Below, in pieces: positions 907 through 7,328 of a stretch of DNA of 12,156 nucleotides (positions are counted from its first letter, which is position 1; each line of letters starts with the position of its first letter). This stretch comes from a virus (lineage: Duplodnaviria > Heunggongvirae > Uroviricota > Caudoviricetes), in IMG/VR virus record IMGVR_UViG_2663763227_000007; one strand, written 5' to 3'. A model generated the notes under the pieces. The model was given only the letters and a program-made list of their open reading frames with translations, was not told where the DNA came from and did no database searches. A program made the translations under genes and the position numbers.

Positions 907-1232
907 AAACCTTTCGCTGGAAAGTGAAACCGGATATGGAGGTGAACTCGCAGCCATCGGTGCGTGAAGTGCGTTTTGGTGACGGGTACTCACAGCGTAT
1001 GGCGGCAGGGCTGAATGCTGACCTGAAAACATACAGGGTGACGCTTTCCGTGACCCGGGAGGAGGCCCGGCATCTGGAAGCGTTCCTGGCAGAGCACGGT
1101 GGCTGGAAGGCATTTTTGTGGAAGCCACCCTATGCATACCGGCAGATAAAGGTGACCTGTGCCGGGTGGTCTGCGCGGGTCGGGATGTTGCGCGTTGAGT
1201 TCAGCGCGGAGTTTAAGCAGGTGGTGAACTGA
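903..1232 (+). CDS. M: Minor tail protein M (lambda gpM-like), 109 aa
   Basis: 109-aa product MKTFRWKVKP...EFSAEFKQVVN, same length as lambda gpM and near-identical at both termini (recalled from memory). ATG overlaps the H stop; its own stop overlaps the L start (TGATG). Confidence 0.92.
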   Translation: MKTFRWKVKPDMEVNSQPSVREVRFGDGYSQRMAAGLNADLKTYRVTLSVTREEARHLEAFLAEHGGWKAFLWKPPYAYRQIKVTCAGWSARVGMLRVEFSAEFKQVVN

Positions 1233-1930
1233 TGCAGGATATTCACGAAGAAAGTCTGAACGAGTCGGTTAAGTCAGAGCAGTCACCGCGGGTGGTACTC
1301 TGGGAAATCGACCTGACGGTGCAGGGCGGTGAGCGGTATTTTTTCTGCAATGAGCTGAATGAAAAAGGGGAGCCGGTGACCTGGCAGGGGCGTGAATATC
1401 AGGCGTACCCGATTGAGGGGAGTGGCTTTGAGATGAACGGGAAGGGCAGCAGTGCCAGACCATCGCTGACGGTGTTCAATCTGTTTGGTCTGGTCACCGG
1501 GATGGCGGAAGACCTGCAGAGTCTGGTGGGGGCCACGGTGGTCCGCCGCCGGGTGTATGCCCGTTTTCTGGATGCGGTGAATTTCGTTGCGGGCAATCCG
1601 GAGGCGGACCCGGAGCAGGAGCTGAGTGACCGCTGGGTGGTGGAGCAGATGTCGCAGCTGACAGCCATGACGGCCTCGTTTGTGCTGGCCACACCGACCG
1701 AGACGGACGGGGCGCTGTTTCCCGGTCGTATCATGCTGGCGAACACCTGTATGTGGACCTACCGCTCTGATGAGTGTGGTTACACGGGCGGGGCTGTGGC
1801 GGATGAGTTCGATAAACCCACCACGGATATCCGTAAGGACAGATGCAGCAAGTGCATGCGCGGGTGTGAACTGCGCAGGAATGTCGGCAATTTTGGCGGT
1901 TTCCTTTCCATTAATAAACTTTCGCAGTAA
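1232..1930 (+). CDS. L: Minor tail protein L (lambda gpL-like), 232 aa
   Basis: 232 aa, same length as lambda gpL. C-terminal cysteine cluster (CMWTYRSDEC...CSKCMRGC) consistent with the Fe-S-binding C-terminus of gpL. Translationally coupled to M. Confidence 0.92.
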   Translation: MQDIHEESLNESVKSEQSPRVVLWEIDLTVQGGERYFFCNELNEKGEPVTWQGREYQAYPIEGSGFEMNGKGSSARPSLTVFNLFGLVTGMAEDLQSLVGATVVRRRVYARFLDAVNFVAGNPEADPEQELSDRWVVEQMSQLTAMTASFVLATPTETDGALFPGRIMLANTCMWTYRSDECGYTGGAVADEFDKPTTDIRKDRCSKCMRGCELRRNVGNFGGFLSINKLSQ

Positions 1931-1940
1931 ATCCCGGTTT

Positions 1941-2606
1941 ATGACACAGACTGAATCAGCGATTCTGGCGCATGCCCGGCGGTGTGCGCCTGCGGAGTCG
2001 TGCGGCTTCGTGATAAGCACGCCGGAGGGGGAGCGGTATATCCCTTGTGTGAATATTTCCGCGGAGCCGGAGGCGTATTTTCGTATCGCACCGGAAGACT
2101 GGCTGCGGGCAGAGATGCAGGGGGAGATTGTGGCGCTGGTCCACAGTCATCCCGGTGGTCTGCCCTGGCTGAGCGAGGCGGACCGGCGGCTGCAGATAAA
2201 GAGTGCCCTGCCCTGGTGGTTGGTCTGCCGGGGTGACATTCACAAATTCCGCTGTGTGCCACATCTGACAGGACGGCGCTTTGAGCACGGGGTGACGGAC
2301 TGTTACACGCTGTTCCGGGATGCTTATCATCTGGCGGTCACCGGCTTTTACCGGGTGCCCCTGTCCTCTGCACAGGCGGGCGATATTCTGCTGTGCTGCT
2401 TTGGTGCTTCGGTACCGAACCATGCCGCCATTTACTGCGGCAACGGTGAGCTGCTTCACCATCTGCCTGAACAACTGAGTAAACGGGAGAGGTATTCCGA
2501 AAAATGGCAACGACGAACGCATTCTGTCTGGCGTCACCGCCACTGGCACGCATCCGCCTTTACGGGGATTTACAACGATTTGGCCGCCGCCTCAGCCTGT
2601 ATGTGA
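1941..2606 (+). CDS. K: Tail tip assembly protein K (lambda gpK-like); JAB/MPN metalloprotease plus NlpC/P60-like domain
   Basis: ATG at 1941 inside the longer ORF-track frame 1680..2606; N-terminus MTQTESAILAHARR as in lambda K. JAMM motif visible (HSHP-x7-S-x2-D in VALVHSHPGGLPWLSEAD); NlpC/P60-type Cys context (DCYTLFRDAY). 3' end overlaps I by 103 nt in another frame, as in lambda. Confidence 0.9.
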   Translation: MTQTESAILAHARRCAPAESCGFVISTPEGERYIPCVNISAEPEAYFRIAPEDWLRAEMQGEIVALVHSHPGGLPWLSEADRRLQIKSALPWWLVCRGDIHKFRCVPHLTGRRFEHGVTDCYTLFRDAYHLAVTGFYRVPLSSAQAGDILLCCFGASVPNHAAIYCGNGELLHHLPEQLSKRERYSEKWQRRTHSVWRHRHWHASAFTGIYNDLAAASACM

Positions 2607-3184
2607 ACACGGCAGCGGAAGCCATTCGCGCCCTGTCGATGCAGATGCCGGGCTTTCGCCGTCAGATGAACGAAGGCTGGTACCAGATACGTATTGCCGG
2701 TGATGACACGGCACCGGAGGCGGTGTACGCCCGTCTTCACGAACAGCTGGGTGAGGGAACGGTCATCCACATTGTGCCGCGACTGGCCGGGGCCGGAAAG
2801 GGTGGACTGCAGATTGTGCTGGGGGCGGCAGCCATCGTGGGCTCTTTCTTCACGGCCGGTGCCTCGATGGTGTTATGGGGTACAGCCCTGAGTGCCGGCG
2901 GTTTTTCTGCCACCACGATGCTGTTTTCACTGGGGGCCAGCATGATACTGGGCGGTGTGGCCCAGATGCTGGCCCCGAAGGCAAAAACACCGGATTACCG
3001 CGCAACGGATAACGGCAGACAGAACACGTACTTTTCCTCACTGGATAACATGATTGCCCAGGGGAACCCGATGCCGGTGCCTTACGGGGAAATGCTGGTT
3101 GGCTCCCGCCGTATATCCCAGGACATCAGCACCCGTGATGAAGGCGGGGGCGGAAAGGTCGTGGTTATCGGGCGGCAGGGGTAA
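2504..3184 (+). CDS. I: Tail tip assembly protein I (lambda gpI-like), 226 aa
   Basis: 226-aa product with ...ICLYGDLQRFGRR...QNTYFSSLDNM...VVVIGR motifs matching lambda gpI as recalled. GAGAGG Shine-Dalgarno about 12 nt upstream. Hydrophobic Gly/Ala-rich central segment. Confidence 0.9.
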   Translation: MATTNAFCLASPPLARIRLYGDLQRFGRRLSLYVNTAAEAIRALSMQMPGFRRQMNEGWYQIRIAGDDTAPEAVYARLHEQLGEGTVIHIVPRLAGAGKGGLQIVLGAAAIVGSFFTAGASMVLWGTALSAGGFSATTMLFSLGASMILGGVAQMLAPKAKTPDYRATDNGRQNTYFSSLDNMIAQGNPMPVPYGEMLVGSRRISQDISTRDEGGGGKVVVIGRQG

Positions 3185-3230
3185 AAAGAATAAAAAAATC
3201 CCGCAGTGATCGCGGACAGGAACTGCGGGA
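3185..3230 (-). terminator. Intrinsic terminator on the minus strand (hairpin plus U7 tract)
   Basis: Inverted repeat tcccgcagt (3199-3207) / actgcggga (3222-3230), 9-bp stem with a 14-nt loop. Immediately followed on the minus strand by T7 (complement of A-run 3192-3198). Not T-rich on the + side, so oriented for leftward transcription. Confidence 0.5.
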
Positions 3231-3289
3231 GAGTTACGAAGATTAAGTGTAAGGAATTATTCTTATATCACGACAAAAAAATTAACGCA
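3190..3289 (-). ncRNA. Candidate ~100-nt small RNA (antisense moron between I and J), bounded by a sigma70-like promoter and the intrinsic terminator
   Basis: Minus-strand TTCACA - 16 bp - TATAAT promoter (plus coordinates 3322-3295) lies about 65 nt upstream of the 3199-3230 terminator hairpin. No ATG in the predicted transcript; a GTG is followed immediately by a stop. AT-rich insert not present in lambda (as recalled). Ends are approximate. Confidence 0.3.
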
Positions 3290-3294
3290 GAGAA

Positions 3295-3322
3295 ATTATA
3301 CGCGCCACAGTCAGTTTGTGAA
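3295..3322 (-). promoter_or_regulatory. Sigma70-like promoter on the minus strand (-35 TTCACA, 16-bp spacer, -10 TATAAT)
   Basis: Reverse complement of 3317-3322 is TTCACA (5/6 match to TTGACA); reverse complement of 3295-3300 is TATAAT (6/6); spacer 16 bp. Confidence 0.35.
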
Positions 3323-3393
3323 AATGTGAAGATATTCAGAATTTTTATGCCATTACCGGTTTTAACCAACAGGATTATCGGTGGGCATGAAAG

Positions 3394-3425
3394 AAAACCC
3401 CGGTATCTGCTGATACCGGGGTTTC
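3394..3425. terminator. Strong near-perfect hairpin (13-bp stem, 4-nt loop) with T-rich flanks on both strands; bidirectional terminator-like
   Basis: aaaccccggtatc (3395-3407) / tgct loop / gataccggggttt (3412-3424). Followed by tttctgttt on the + strand; on the minus strand followed by ttttctttcat. Confidence 0.45.
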
Positions 3426-3527
3426 TGTTTAGCATGGCAGAAATGTGTTTCATGCTTTTCGGGCGAAGGATATCCGACTTCTGTACGGAATGGCAAGTGG
3501 CGGTTAATTTATTCAGGGGAAGGCTGT

Positions 3528-6500
3528 ATGGGAAAAGGTGGCGGTAAGGCACACACGCCTCGCGAGGCGAAGGATAATCTCAAATCCACGCAGATGATGA
3601 GTGTGATTGATGCGATTGGTGAGGGACCGATAGAAGGTCCGGTGAAGGGACTGCAGAGTATCCTGGTGAACAAAACCCCGCTGACGGACACGGACGGTAA
3701 TCCCGTGATACACGGTGTGACCGCGGTCTGGCGCGCCGGGGAGCAGGAGCAGACACCACCGGAAGGCTTTGAGTCCTCCGGAGCTGAAACCGGACTGGGC
3801 GTGGAAGTGACGAAGGCAAAACCGGTGACGCGCACCATTACGTCCGCGAACATTGACCGCCTGCGGGTTACCTTCGGGGTGCAGTCACTGGTGCAGACCA
3901 CGTCAAAGGGCGACCGTAATCCTTCCTCTGTCCGGATTTTGATTCAGTTACAGCGTAATGGTCGCTGGGTGACGGAAAAGGACGTCACCATTAACGGCAA
4001 GACCACCTCACAGTTCCTGGCCTCGGTGATTCTGGATAATCTGCCTCCCCGGCCCTTTAACATCCGGATGGTCCGGGAGACAGCGGACAGCACCACGGAC
4101 CAGCTGCAGAATAAGACGCTGTGGTCGTCATACACCGAAATCATCGATGTGAAACAGTGCTACCCGAACACGGCCATTGTGGGGCTGCAGGTGGATGCGG
4201 AGCAGTTCGGCGGCCAGCAGATGACGGTGAACTACCATATCCGCGGTCGCATCATTCAGGTGCCGTCAAACTATGACCCGGAAAAACGCACGTACAGCGG
4301 TATCTGGGACGGCAGCCTGAAACCGGCATACAGCAACAACCCGGCCTGGTGTCTGTGGGACATGCTGACTCACCCGCGCTACGGCATGGGAAAACGTCTG
4401 GGGGCGGCGGATGTGGACAAGTGGGCGCTGTATGCCATCGGGCAGTACTGCGACCAGACGGTCCCGGATGGTTTCGGGGGGACCGAGCTGCGGATGACCT
4501 TTAATGCGTACCTGGCACAACAGCGTAAGGCGTGGGACGTTCTCAGTAATTTCTGCTCTGCGATGCGCTGTATGCCGGTATGGAACGGTCAGACGCTGAC
4601 GTTCGTTCAGGACCGCCCGTCGGATGTGGTGTGGCCGTACACCAGCAGCGATGTGGTGGTGGATGATAACGGCGTGGGTTTCCGCTACAGCTTCAGTGCC
4701 CTGAAGGACCGGCACACGGCGGTGGAGGTGAATTACACCGACCCGCAGAACGGCTGGCAGACCTCCACGGAACTGGTGGAAGACCCGGAAGCCATACTGC
4801 GCTACGGACGCAACCTGCTGAAGATGGACGCGTTCGGCTGTACCAGCCGCGGTCAGGCCCACCGTGCCGGGCTGTGGGTGATAAAGACCGAACTGCTGGA
4901 AACGCAGACGGTGGATTTCACGCTCGGGTCACAGGGGCTGCGTCACACACCCGGTGACATCATTGAAATCTGTGATAACGACTATGCCGGGACCATGACC
5001 GGCGGACGTGTCCTGTCCATCGATGCCGCCAGCCGTACCCTGACGCTGGACCGGGAGGTGACACTGCCGGAGACCGGCACGGCCACTGTTAATCTGATTA
5101 ACGGCAGCGGTAAGCCGGCGAGCGTGGCCATCACCGCACACCCCGCGCCTGACCGGATACAGGTCAGCACCCTGCCGGATGGTGTGGAGACATACGGTGT
5201 GTGGGGACTCTCCCTGCCGTCACTGCGTCGTCGTCTGTTCCGCTGTGTCTCCATCCGGGAAAACACGGACGGCACCTTTGCCATCACGGCGGTGCAGCAC
5301 GTACCTGAAAAAGAAGCCATCGTGGATAACGGGGCCCGCTTTGAGCCGCAGTCAGGCACCCTGAACAGCGTTATCCCACCGGCAGTGCAGCACCTGACGG
5401 TGGAGGTGAGCGCAGCTGACGGCCAGTATCTGGCGCAGGCTAAATGGGACACGCCGCGGGTGGTGAAGGGCGTGCGCTTCAGTCTGCGCCTGACCAGTGG
5501 TAAGGGAACGGATGCCAGACTGGTGACCACCGCCATCACCGCAGACACGGAGCACCGTTTCAGCGGCCTGCCACTGGGGGAATACACCCTGACGGTCAGG
5601 GCGATTAACAGTTATGGCCAGCAGGGCGAATCGGCCACCACCACCTTCCGGATTAACGCGCCTGCAAAACCCGCCACCATTGAGCTGACGCCGGGGTATT
5701 TTCAGATAACGGCGGTACCGGTGCTGGCGGTGTATGACCCGACGGTGCAGTTTGAGTTCTGGTTTTCGGAAAAACGCATCACGAACACGGCACAGGTGGA
5801 AAAATCTGCCCGTTATCTGGGGACCGGCAGTCAGTGGACTGTCCAGGGCGATCGGATTAAGCCGGGGATGGATTTCTGGTTTTATGTGCGCAGTGTCAAC
5901 CTGGTGGGCAAGTCTGCATTTGTGGAAGCCAGCGGGCAGGCCAGCAATGATGCAAAAGGGTATCTGGAATTTTTCCGTGGTCTGATAGATGAGACGCTGC
6001 TGGGGCAGGCACTGAAAAAGCGCATTGATGCGTCAGCCCTGCGATCGGATGTCACTCAACTGGAAGAGAATATCGGACAACTGGAAGAAGACATCCGTCA
6101 GCGGATGGACACGGATATTGCGGAAGTGACCCGGAAAATCGGGGAGGCGGAAAACAGCCTCACGCAGCTGGTTGCGAAAAAGAATGAGGATCAGACGCTG
6201 GCCATCGCGCAGGTGAGTCAGAAAGTGGACCGTGTCAGCAGTGAAATCTCACAGACGGTCAGTCAGAGCAGTGAGGAAAATACCCGACAGATAGCACAGG
6301 TCCGCCAGTACGTGGACAAAAAGCAAAGTGAAATCAAGCAGACAGTCAGCCAGGGCCAGTCAGAAAACGCCCGGCAGATAGCACAGGTCCGTCAGTACGT
6401 GGATGAAAAAGGGAGTGAAATTGCCTCGACCACGGATAAAAAACTGGGTGACCAGGCCGTGACCATACAGCAAATCCAGCGGGTTCAGTCAGACACGCGC

Positions 6501-7328
6501 GATAATCTGAATGCCATGTATATGCTGAAGGTGCAGAAAACGAAGAAGGGTATTCCGTATGTGGCCGGGATTGGCGCGGGGATCGAGGATGTCGATGGTC
6601 AGACGCTGAGTAACATTCTGCTGCAGGCCGATCGCATTGCGATGATTACTCCGGAGAACGGTAACACCACGCCGTTATTTGTGGCGCAGGGGAATCAGCT
6701 GTTCATGAACGACGTGTTCCTGAAGCGACTGTTTGCGGTGAGCATCACGTCATCCGGCAATCCTCCGACGTTTTCCCTGACGCCGGATGGCAGGCTGACA
6801 GCCCGCAATGCGGATATCAGTGGAGCCATCACGGCGAATACCGGCACGCTCAATAATGTCACCATTAACGAGAACTGTGTCATCAGAGGGAAACTGTCTG
6901 CAAACCAGATTGAAGGCGATCTCGTTAAAACAGTGGGTAAGGCTTTCCCCCGTGACTCCCGTGCACCGGAGCGTTGGCCATCAGGAACCATTACCGTCAG
7001 GGTTTATGACGATCAGCCGTTTAACCGGCAGATTGTTATTCCGGCGGTGGCTTTCAGCGGTGCCAGACATGAGCGGGAGAACAGCGATACTTATTCGTCA
7101 TGCCGCCTGATAGTGAAGAAAAACGGTGCTGAAATTTATAACCGTACCGCGATGGATAATACGCTGGTTTACAGTGGTGTTATTGATATGCCTGCTGGTC
7201 GCGGCCACATGACGCTGGAGTTTTCTGTATCAGCATGGTGGGTAAATGGCTGGTATCCCACAGCAAGTATCAGCGATTTGCTGGTTGTTGTGATGAAGAA
7301 AGCCACTGCAGGCATCACGATTAGCTGA
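3528..7328 (+). CDS. J: Tail tip / host specificity protein J (lambda gpJ-like central tail fibre), 1266 aa
   Basis: N-terminus [22 protein letters not shown] and long collinear similarity to lambda J as recalled (e.g. [70 protein letters not shown]). GGGGAAGG Shine-Dalgarno upstream. About 134 aa longer than lambda J (1132 aa). Confidence 0.95.
6240..6425 (+). repeat. In-frame 87-bp tandem repeat (2 full copies plus a partial) inside J, encoding a 29-aa repeat
   Basis: Copies start at 6240, 6327 and 6414 (agtgaaatc...), period 87 bp and in frame. Encoded repeat SEI(S/K)[19 protein letters not shown]. Confidence 0.8.

Follow-up and report, generated by a model that had tools for sequence, protein, structure and literature searches.

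A 29-residue repeat and allelic length variation in the predicted helical shaft of the central tail fibre protein J of a lambda-like prophage

Gene J and the extra segment of its shaft

We analysed a 12,156-nucleotide stretch of viral DNA (IMG/VR record IMGVR_UViG_2663763227_000007, Caudoviricetes), called the window below, and focus here on the shaft of J, the central tail fibre protein that it encodes. Gene J (3528–7328, plus strand, as are the parts of J given below) specifies a tip attachment or central tail fibre protein of 1266 residues. This open reading frame (ORF) matched lambda J (PDB 8IYK) with E = 0 in a phmmer search, matched PHROG 31 ('central tail fiber J'), and corresponds to the protein annotated as gpJ in Escherichia coli O7:K1 CE10 (WP_000514741.1). 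Six Pfam families scored above their cut-offs in J (FNIII-A_GpJ, Phage-tail_3, Ig_J, Ig_J_second, Phage_Tail_Tip, and Ig_GpJ_C), and the full lambda-type domain set was present, comprising hub domains, two FNIII/Ig domains, a β-prism, and a C-terminal Ig receptor-binding domain. J is an ordinary member of its family, and the shaft is an already known element of it. The second FNIII/Ig domain (residues 714–816, 5667–5975; Ig_J_second, E = 3.5e-40) lies directly 5' of the shaft, and the β-prism or 'central straight fibre' domain (residues 980–1107, 6465–6848; Phage_Tail_Tip, E = 1.1e-23) and the C-terminal Ig-like receptor-binding domain (residues 1136–1266, 6933–7325; Ig_GpJ_C, E = 1.3e-37) follow. 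Residues 817–979, between the end of Ig_J_second at 816 and the start of Phage_Tail_Tip at 980, were covered by no Pfam family and no specific PHROGs model, and neither strand had a competing ORF of at least 60 residues that overlapped the shaft.

In lambda gpJ, an α-helical shaft (residues 809–861) that forms a three-helix bundle comes after the FNIII domains, and a β-sheet prism and the receptor-binding domain come after the shaft; upon LamB binding, the shaft turns over through about 180 degrees, and residues 841–861 refold into β-strands (PMC11101478). Alignment of the window protein with lambda J (1132 residues) paired J 1–836 with lambda 1–838 and J 975–1265 with lambda 840–1131. The upper α-helical shaft is common to both proteins (J 807–836, 5946–6035, about lambda 809–838; boundaries from PMC11101478, with AlphaFold2 helices at 809–822 and 824–834), as is the lower shaft helix (6450–6515), which corresponds to lambda 840–861, part of which refolds into β-strands on LamB binding in lambda (PMC11101478). 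Between them lies a segment of 138 residues (J 837–974, 6036–6449) that has no lambda counterpart, aligned to no PDB chain, belongs to no Pfam family, and carries a coherent period of 3.65 residues.

Because lambda 838 and 840, midway along a helix, flank the extra residues, what a preliminary description of the window had called an insertion in J amounts to an elongation of the shaft: the extra residues are real, but they lengthen an existing α-helical element and are not an inserted foreign module. Judged by the alignment, the extra segment is an expansion of lambda's own shaft between the second FNIII domain and the β-prism. The coordinates, protein lengths, and motifs in that description were correct, as was its placement of the extra length between the GYLEFF and YVAGIG motifs, and the positions of the Pfam domains together with the alignment confirm that the segment has the conserved body on one side and the receptor-binding part on the other. 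The lambda shaft (809–861; PDB 8XCJ/8XCK and 8IYK) and the shaft of the window protein belong to the same protein family, occupy the same position, and are homologous in sequence at both ends (J 807–836 and 975–996). By contrast, the flanking motifs are 62 residues apart in lambda and 199 here, and the 29-residue array described below has neither a lambda counterpart nor a Pfam model.

When the shaft alone was compared with solved structures, only lambda J was found, at the two ends of the shaft. Apolipoprotein A-IV and a short tail fibre were rejected as relatives, these matches being weak and non-significant (E of at least 0.1) and attributable to generic helical similarity. An exhaustive search of 1.84 billion protein representatives returned only 21 matches, mostly fragments, so that the repeat unit occurs in no more than a small group of J proteins. 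One match in that search, P0139, was an unrelated repeat protein and was discarded.

A 29-residue repeat in the shaft

Tandem Repeats Finder reported an array at 6240–6411 with a period of 87 bp (2.0 copies, 82% matches, score 237). The top score among 300 codon-shuffled J genes was 58, and none of these genes contained an array with a period of at least 21 and a score of at least 100. As had been described from the sequence initially, the two copies (6240–6413) are in frame with the 1266-residue ORF; they stand head to tail and encode residues 905–933 and 934–962. Compared without gaps, they are identical at 65 of 87 nucleotides, and their longest exact common run is 17 nt.

In the protein, five consecutive 29-residue units spanning residues 847–991 share conserved positions, with hydrophobic side chains mainly at positions 3, 7, 18, 21, and 25 of the unit. 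BLOSUM autocorrelation peaked at lags of 29 (z = 10.3), 58 (z = 5.4), and 87 (z = 4.5), and additional peaks at 11, 22, and 40 point to an 11-residue sub-period. Unit 1 (residues 847–875, 6066–6152) is degenerate and was placed by the register table and autocorrelation. Unit 2 (residues 876–904, 6153–6239), also degenerate, is identical to unit 3 at 43 of 87 nucleotides and keeps the protein register. Units 3 (residues 905–933, 6240–6326) and 4 (residues 934–962, 6327–6413) are the two copies of the 87-bp tandem repeat, and unit 5 (residues 963–991, 6414–6500), placed by register and by the phmmer alignment, overlaps the lower shaft helix common with lambda. The count of two full copies and one partial copy given earlier was therefore right for the full copies and needed amendment elsewhere: the partial copy, unit 5, matches at only 36 of 87 nucleotides but retains the 29-residue register in the protein, and two more degenerate units lie upstream.

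A tandem pair of heptads, LEENIGQ and LEEDIRQ (6060–6101), is encoded by 21-bp units that are identical at 15 of 21 nucleotides. The heptad LEENIGQ is missing from the AR_0013 and S88 alleles, and other alleles carry 11 or 22 additional residues at this place.

Evidence for a continuous helix

AlphaFold2 was run on J 714–1135 as a monomer with a 48-sequence alignment, a calculation that shows the helix and not its oligomeric state. The model contains an FNIII-like domain, the two short helices noted above, and then a single continuous α-helix, assigned by DSSP to residues 837–990 (positions 124–277 of the modelled piece; 154 residues, about 23 nm; 6036–6497), with a predicted local distance difference test score (pLDDT) of about 90 over residues 844–943. 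The hydrophobicity spectrum of the extra segment had one dominant peak at 3.65 residues, and that of the whole shaft peaked at 3.625, or 29/8. Hydrophobic periodicity remained in phase across the entire extra segment, with a power of 198 against a shuffle maximum of 52±13, a value reached by 0 of 300 shuffles. Proline is absent from the segment, in which Q, E, S, and K are abundant. Length-normalised spectral power at a period of 3.625 was 116, 172, 194, and 236 in the 163, 199, 232, and 301 length classes introduced below, and this rise with shaft length indicates that the hydrophobic stripe stays in phase over every repeat junction. The initial view of the segment as coiled-coil-like is borne out by its period, by the lack of proline, and by the predicted continuous helix, and the model is that of an extended helix with no globular domain.

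Based upon this period, each 29-residue unit would make eight helical turns with a core spacing equivalent to 7+11+11 residues, and at 3.625 residues per turn the hydrophobic stripe would run almost straight along the helix. By analogy with lambda and F2 pyocin, the most likely packing of three such helices would be a parallel three-stranded coiled coil, forming a stiff spacer.

A length series among J alleles

As a measure of shaft length in homologues, we used the number of residues between the conserved motifs YLxFF and YVAGIG/YIAGIG. This spacing was 62 in lambda; 90 in Shiga toxin (Stx) phages, Shigella, E. albertii, and Salmonella; 163 in S88, ST131, and others (roughly 600 of 5,426 complete genomes); 192 in 2 genomes; 199 in the window allele (12 genomes); and 232, 243, and 301 in a sister allele family. 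Homologues therefore vary in repeat number and are not of constant length. As read from sequence comparison, in-frame gain or loss of whole units underlies the allelic length differences. The 192 and 163 classes differ by exactly one 29-residue unit, the S88/ST131-type alleles having one copy only, in which features of unit 3 are combined with those of unit 4, and a single heptad, LEENIGQ, separates the window allele from the 192 class. In the sister family, intact J proteins of 1169, 1180, and 1238 residues are 99–99.6% identical outside the shaft, and the steps between them are of exactly 11 residues, with the sequence QLENAINREMT, and exactly 58 residues, equal to two 29-residue units. The DNA units in this family are highly similar (174-bp units at 90–96% matches and 33-bp units at 97%), suggesting that length changes there were recent. 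A variant with three 58-residue units (3x58) was first seen in P0022, a frameshifted J, and was confirmed in an intact gene of a complete genome.

All exactly readable steps in the series (163–192, 192–199, 232–243, and 243–301) are of 7, 11, 29, or 58 residues, and the gap from 163 to 232 equals 58 + 11. The steps between diverged classes, from 62 to 90 (28 residues) and from 90 to 163 (73 residues), have no confident decomposition. A scan of genome contigs with narrow patterns found 14 loci, and all nine with a readable spacing fell in the 90 class.

Further duplications were seen in single database sequences. In fragment P0121, a different 29-residue frame is present in duplicate (IAEVTKKITASENSITELVAKKSGEQSLA x2), and the β-prism has a 29-residue duplication as well; in fragment P0026, which comes from a 756-bp contig, 54 residues are duplicated; and P0095 is a single-sequence variant with a 3-residue QIQ duplication in or beside the shaft; some of these duplications may be assembly artefacts. 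Among the matches listed, database hits to the shaft part of J were mostly incomplete proteins from contigs about 1 kb long, which suggests that J is a common breakpoint of short-read assemblies, probably because several lambdoid prophages share J, with up to eight matching places per genome.

At three loci with 58-residue units (L011–L013; J of 1169–1238 residues at 1109–4825, 1109–4651, and 1109–4618), little sequence lies past the β-prism, and conserved ORFs of 74 and 220 residues come next. Judged by their length, these J proteins appear to lack the C-terminal Ig receptor-binding domain. By analogy with T5, and as proposed for F2 pyocin, the receptor-binding part may be encoded separately.

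Age and stability of the window allele

The two 87-bp copies in the window have a synonymous divergence (dS) of 1.19 and a ratio of nonsynonymous to synonymous divergence (dN/dS) of 0.16, and on this measure they are old or derived from diverged alleles. The shaft region of J is 100% identical to that of E. coli O7:K1 CE10, of IAI39, and of eight further complete genomes, with gpJ as its annotation there. The window allele occurs in 12 complete genomes, every one with an identical 611-bp span, although these O7:K1 strains may be clonal, and no three-copy allele was found among the top matches in 5,426 complete genomes. Near-identical copies combined with variation in close relatives, as at an active unstable locus, were found only in the sister family and not for the window allele. 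The preliminary description had considered length change by slipped-strand or recombinational events plausible; homologues do vary in length, but slippage is unlikely for the window allele, in which the copies are 75–82% identical and strongly diverged at synonymous sites and in which length is the same in 12 of 12 genomes. Judged by these comparisons, rapid slippage at the window allele is unlikely.

Compared with an S88-type allele, the window J is 98–100% identical outside the shaft and 80–94% identical inside it, and the dN/dS of the shaft is 0.14–0.26. By these values, the shaft is a local diversity hot spot under purifying selection. With regard to an origin of the two-copy allele in a recent crossover of diverged alleles, the S88-type flanks are 98–100% identical on both sides, the units are 86% and 91% identical, and there is no clean breakpoint.

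Proposed role of the shaft and alternative explanations

We conclude that the segment is probably part of an extended α-helical shaft of a trimeric central tail fibre, with the shaft serving as a spacer that sets fibre length. Under this proposal, lambda's helix would be lengthened by 138 residues in the window protein, carried by the five 29-residue units. Helix geometry, at about 0.15 nm per residue, would give about 4.3 nm for one unit, about 20 nm for the 138 extra residues, and about 35 nm beyond lambda for the 301 class. Indels of 7, 11, 29, or 58 residues would keep the hydrophobic core in register, and length change would likely arise when repeat units, or the J alleles of co-resident prophages, undergo unequal homologous recombination. 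For the O-polysaccharide layer, a thickness of about 20–30 nm is given, and O-polysaccharide blocks lambda infection. How far the receptor-binding domain could extend across O-antigen or capsule towards a receptor in the outer membrane would be set by shaft length. A bolder version, which we offer tentatively and consider rather doubtful, is that the J shaft is a tunable molecular ruler: wild E. coli lambda-like prophages would match their reach, within a range of about 35 nm, to how thick the O-antigen or capsule layer of the host is by gaining or losing coiled-coil units, and only register-preserving steps (7, 11, 29, and 58 residues) would survive, keeping the receptor signal transmissible.

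Several points weigh against the spacer interpretation and its extension. Shaft length is tied to host surface type by neither experiment nor association. Trimeric packing is taken from lambda and F2 pyocin by analogy, the model being of a monomer only, and polar residues (S, N, Q) occupy several positions of the core, which may make the bundle less strong, or more dynamic, than a canonical coiled coil. In lambda the shaft flips and partly refolds when the receptor is bound, a signal that would here have to cross a 20-nm rod. Finally, the same length class occurs with different types of downstream fibre and receptor domain, an arrangement that neutral shuffling fits equally.

In one alternative, the shaft would be a linker under structural constraint but neutral in function, its length classes being by-products of prophage J recombination and any length being tolerated if register is kept. 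The occurrence of one length class with different β-prism and receptor-domain types, and of different classes with near-identical flanks, is in keeping with a neutral linker, structural constraint alone would explain the low dN/dS and the conservation of register, and the sequence data as a whole are fitted almost as well as by tuning of reach. We nevertheless regard this explanation as possible and somewhat improbable, as the long forms persist intact in many genomes (about 600 complete genomes in the 163 class) and as the shaft remodels during lambda infection, which makes a three- to five-fold change in length unlikely to be without effect; this latter point is an argument and not a test. 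Docking of accessory or side fibres to the extended shaft, as in F2 pyocin, where three side-fibre trimers are bound to a long shaft at a glycine kink, seems quite unlikely. Glycines do occur at unit boundaries in the window shaft (residues 943, 962, and 974), and a side tail fibre gene lies downstream at 8147–10210, but the product of that gene is annotated with a lambda-type 'prophage tail fiber N-terminal domain', which in Ur-lambda forms a collar round the gpV/gpM junction and is not on the J shaft, and AlphaFold2 predicts neither a kink nor an inserted domain.

It has also to be asked whether the 87-bp repeat is a fast-switching contingency locus, at which replication slippage would produce mixed fibre lengths within a population. 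The repeats are tandem and in frame, and the sister family, with its highly similar 174-bp and 33-bp units, shows three length states among alleles that are 97–99.6% identical by DNA. In the window, however, the copies are 75–82% identical with a dS of 1.19, their longest exact common run is 17 nt, and the span has one length in all 12 (possibly clonal) genomes, with no three-copy allele among the top matches in 5,426 genomes, and we consider a contingency locus highly improbable.

Comparison with other systems and significance

β-giardin forms a segmented coiled coil with a 29-residue repeat. In SF-assemblin, a 29-residue coiled-coil period consists of four heptads and a skip residue (PMC2119799). 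Both have the same period as the J shaft, but they are eukaryotic cytoskeletal two-stranded filaments that are unrelated to it in sequence, and the likeness is one of coiled-coil geometry only. Size variants that differ in repeat number are familiar from streptococcal M proteins, from collagen-like repeats in the host-specificity proteins of Streptococcus thermophilus phages, and from phage tape-measure proteins. In these systems, too, in-frame tandem repeats alter the length of an elongated protein by recombination, but the proteins and folds are different, and the units here are of 7, 11, 29, or 58 residues in a siphophage tip protein.

The central fibre of the F2-type pyocin PyoF10 (PDB 25vf and related entries; PMC13455828) is a J homologue whose 'exceptionally long' shaft was solved as a coiled coil of three strands, and its N-terminal 850 residues align with the window J (E = 5e-120). 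Unlike the window protein, it has an insertion domain and a glycine kink in the shaft that dock side fibres, and it lacks a C-terminal receptor-binding domain. No sequence similarity between PyoF10 and the window repeat units was detected in the search of solved structures. In the literature, for which search coverage was incomplete, we found no description of a shaft built from 29-residue units or of an allelic length series with register-preserving steps.

J decides which cells a lambda-like phage infects, and attention so far has been almost entirely on the C-terminal receptor-binding domain. The length of the helical shaft is a second variable element of J: measured between the same two motifs, natural alleles have 62 to 301 residues, in discrete steps that preserve register. 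If passage through O-antigen or capsule is controlled by this length, the length would help to account for prophage host range in pathogenic E. coli and would provide a simple engineering handle for phages and tailocins. Because the shaft is the part that refolds in lambda, the allelic series is also a natural means of testing how the signal of receptor binding is passed along the fibre.

Other features of the window

Based upon its ORFs and the CE10 annotation, the window has the lambda-type gene order M-L-K-I-J-lom-stf, and an Rfam search of the window gave no match. Genes I and J are separated by a gap of 344 bp (3185–3527). The corresponding interval in lambda is only about 60 bp. The gap holds a GTG-start ORF of 113 residues (3206–3547, plus strand) that is unannotated in CE10 and had no Pfam or PHROG match; in tblastn searches it matched 56 phage records, and those listed were mostly 'PPompW' prophages with about 87% protein identity.

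Within the β-prism part of J, a 15-bp tandem repeat (6699–6733; 2.3 copies, score 47) scored below the codon-shuffled maximum of 58 and is probably a chance occurrence. Compared with CE10 (L001), the window is 100% identical over J 5950–6560 and differs upstream, starting in the 3' end of the tape-measure gene (window position about 582 onward); this mismatch indicates that the window comes from a different strain or a mosaic relative. CE10 also carries a truncated ompW gene at 14378–14503 of L001, past the end of the prophage in the window, which fits a lambdoid prophage of the ompW-integrated ('PPompW') type.

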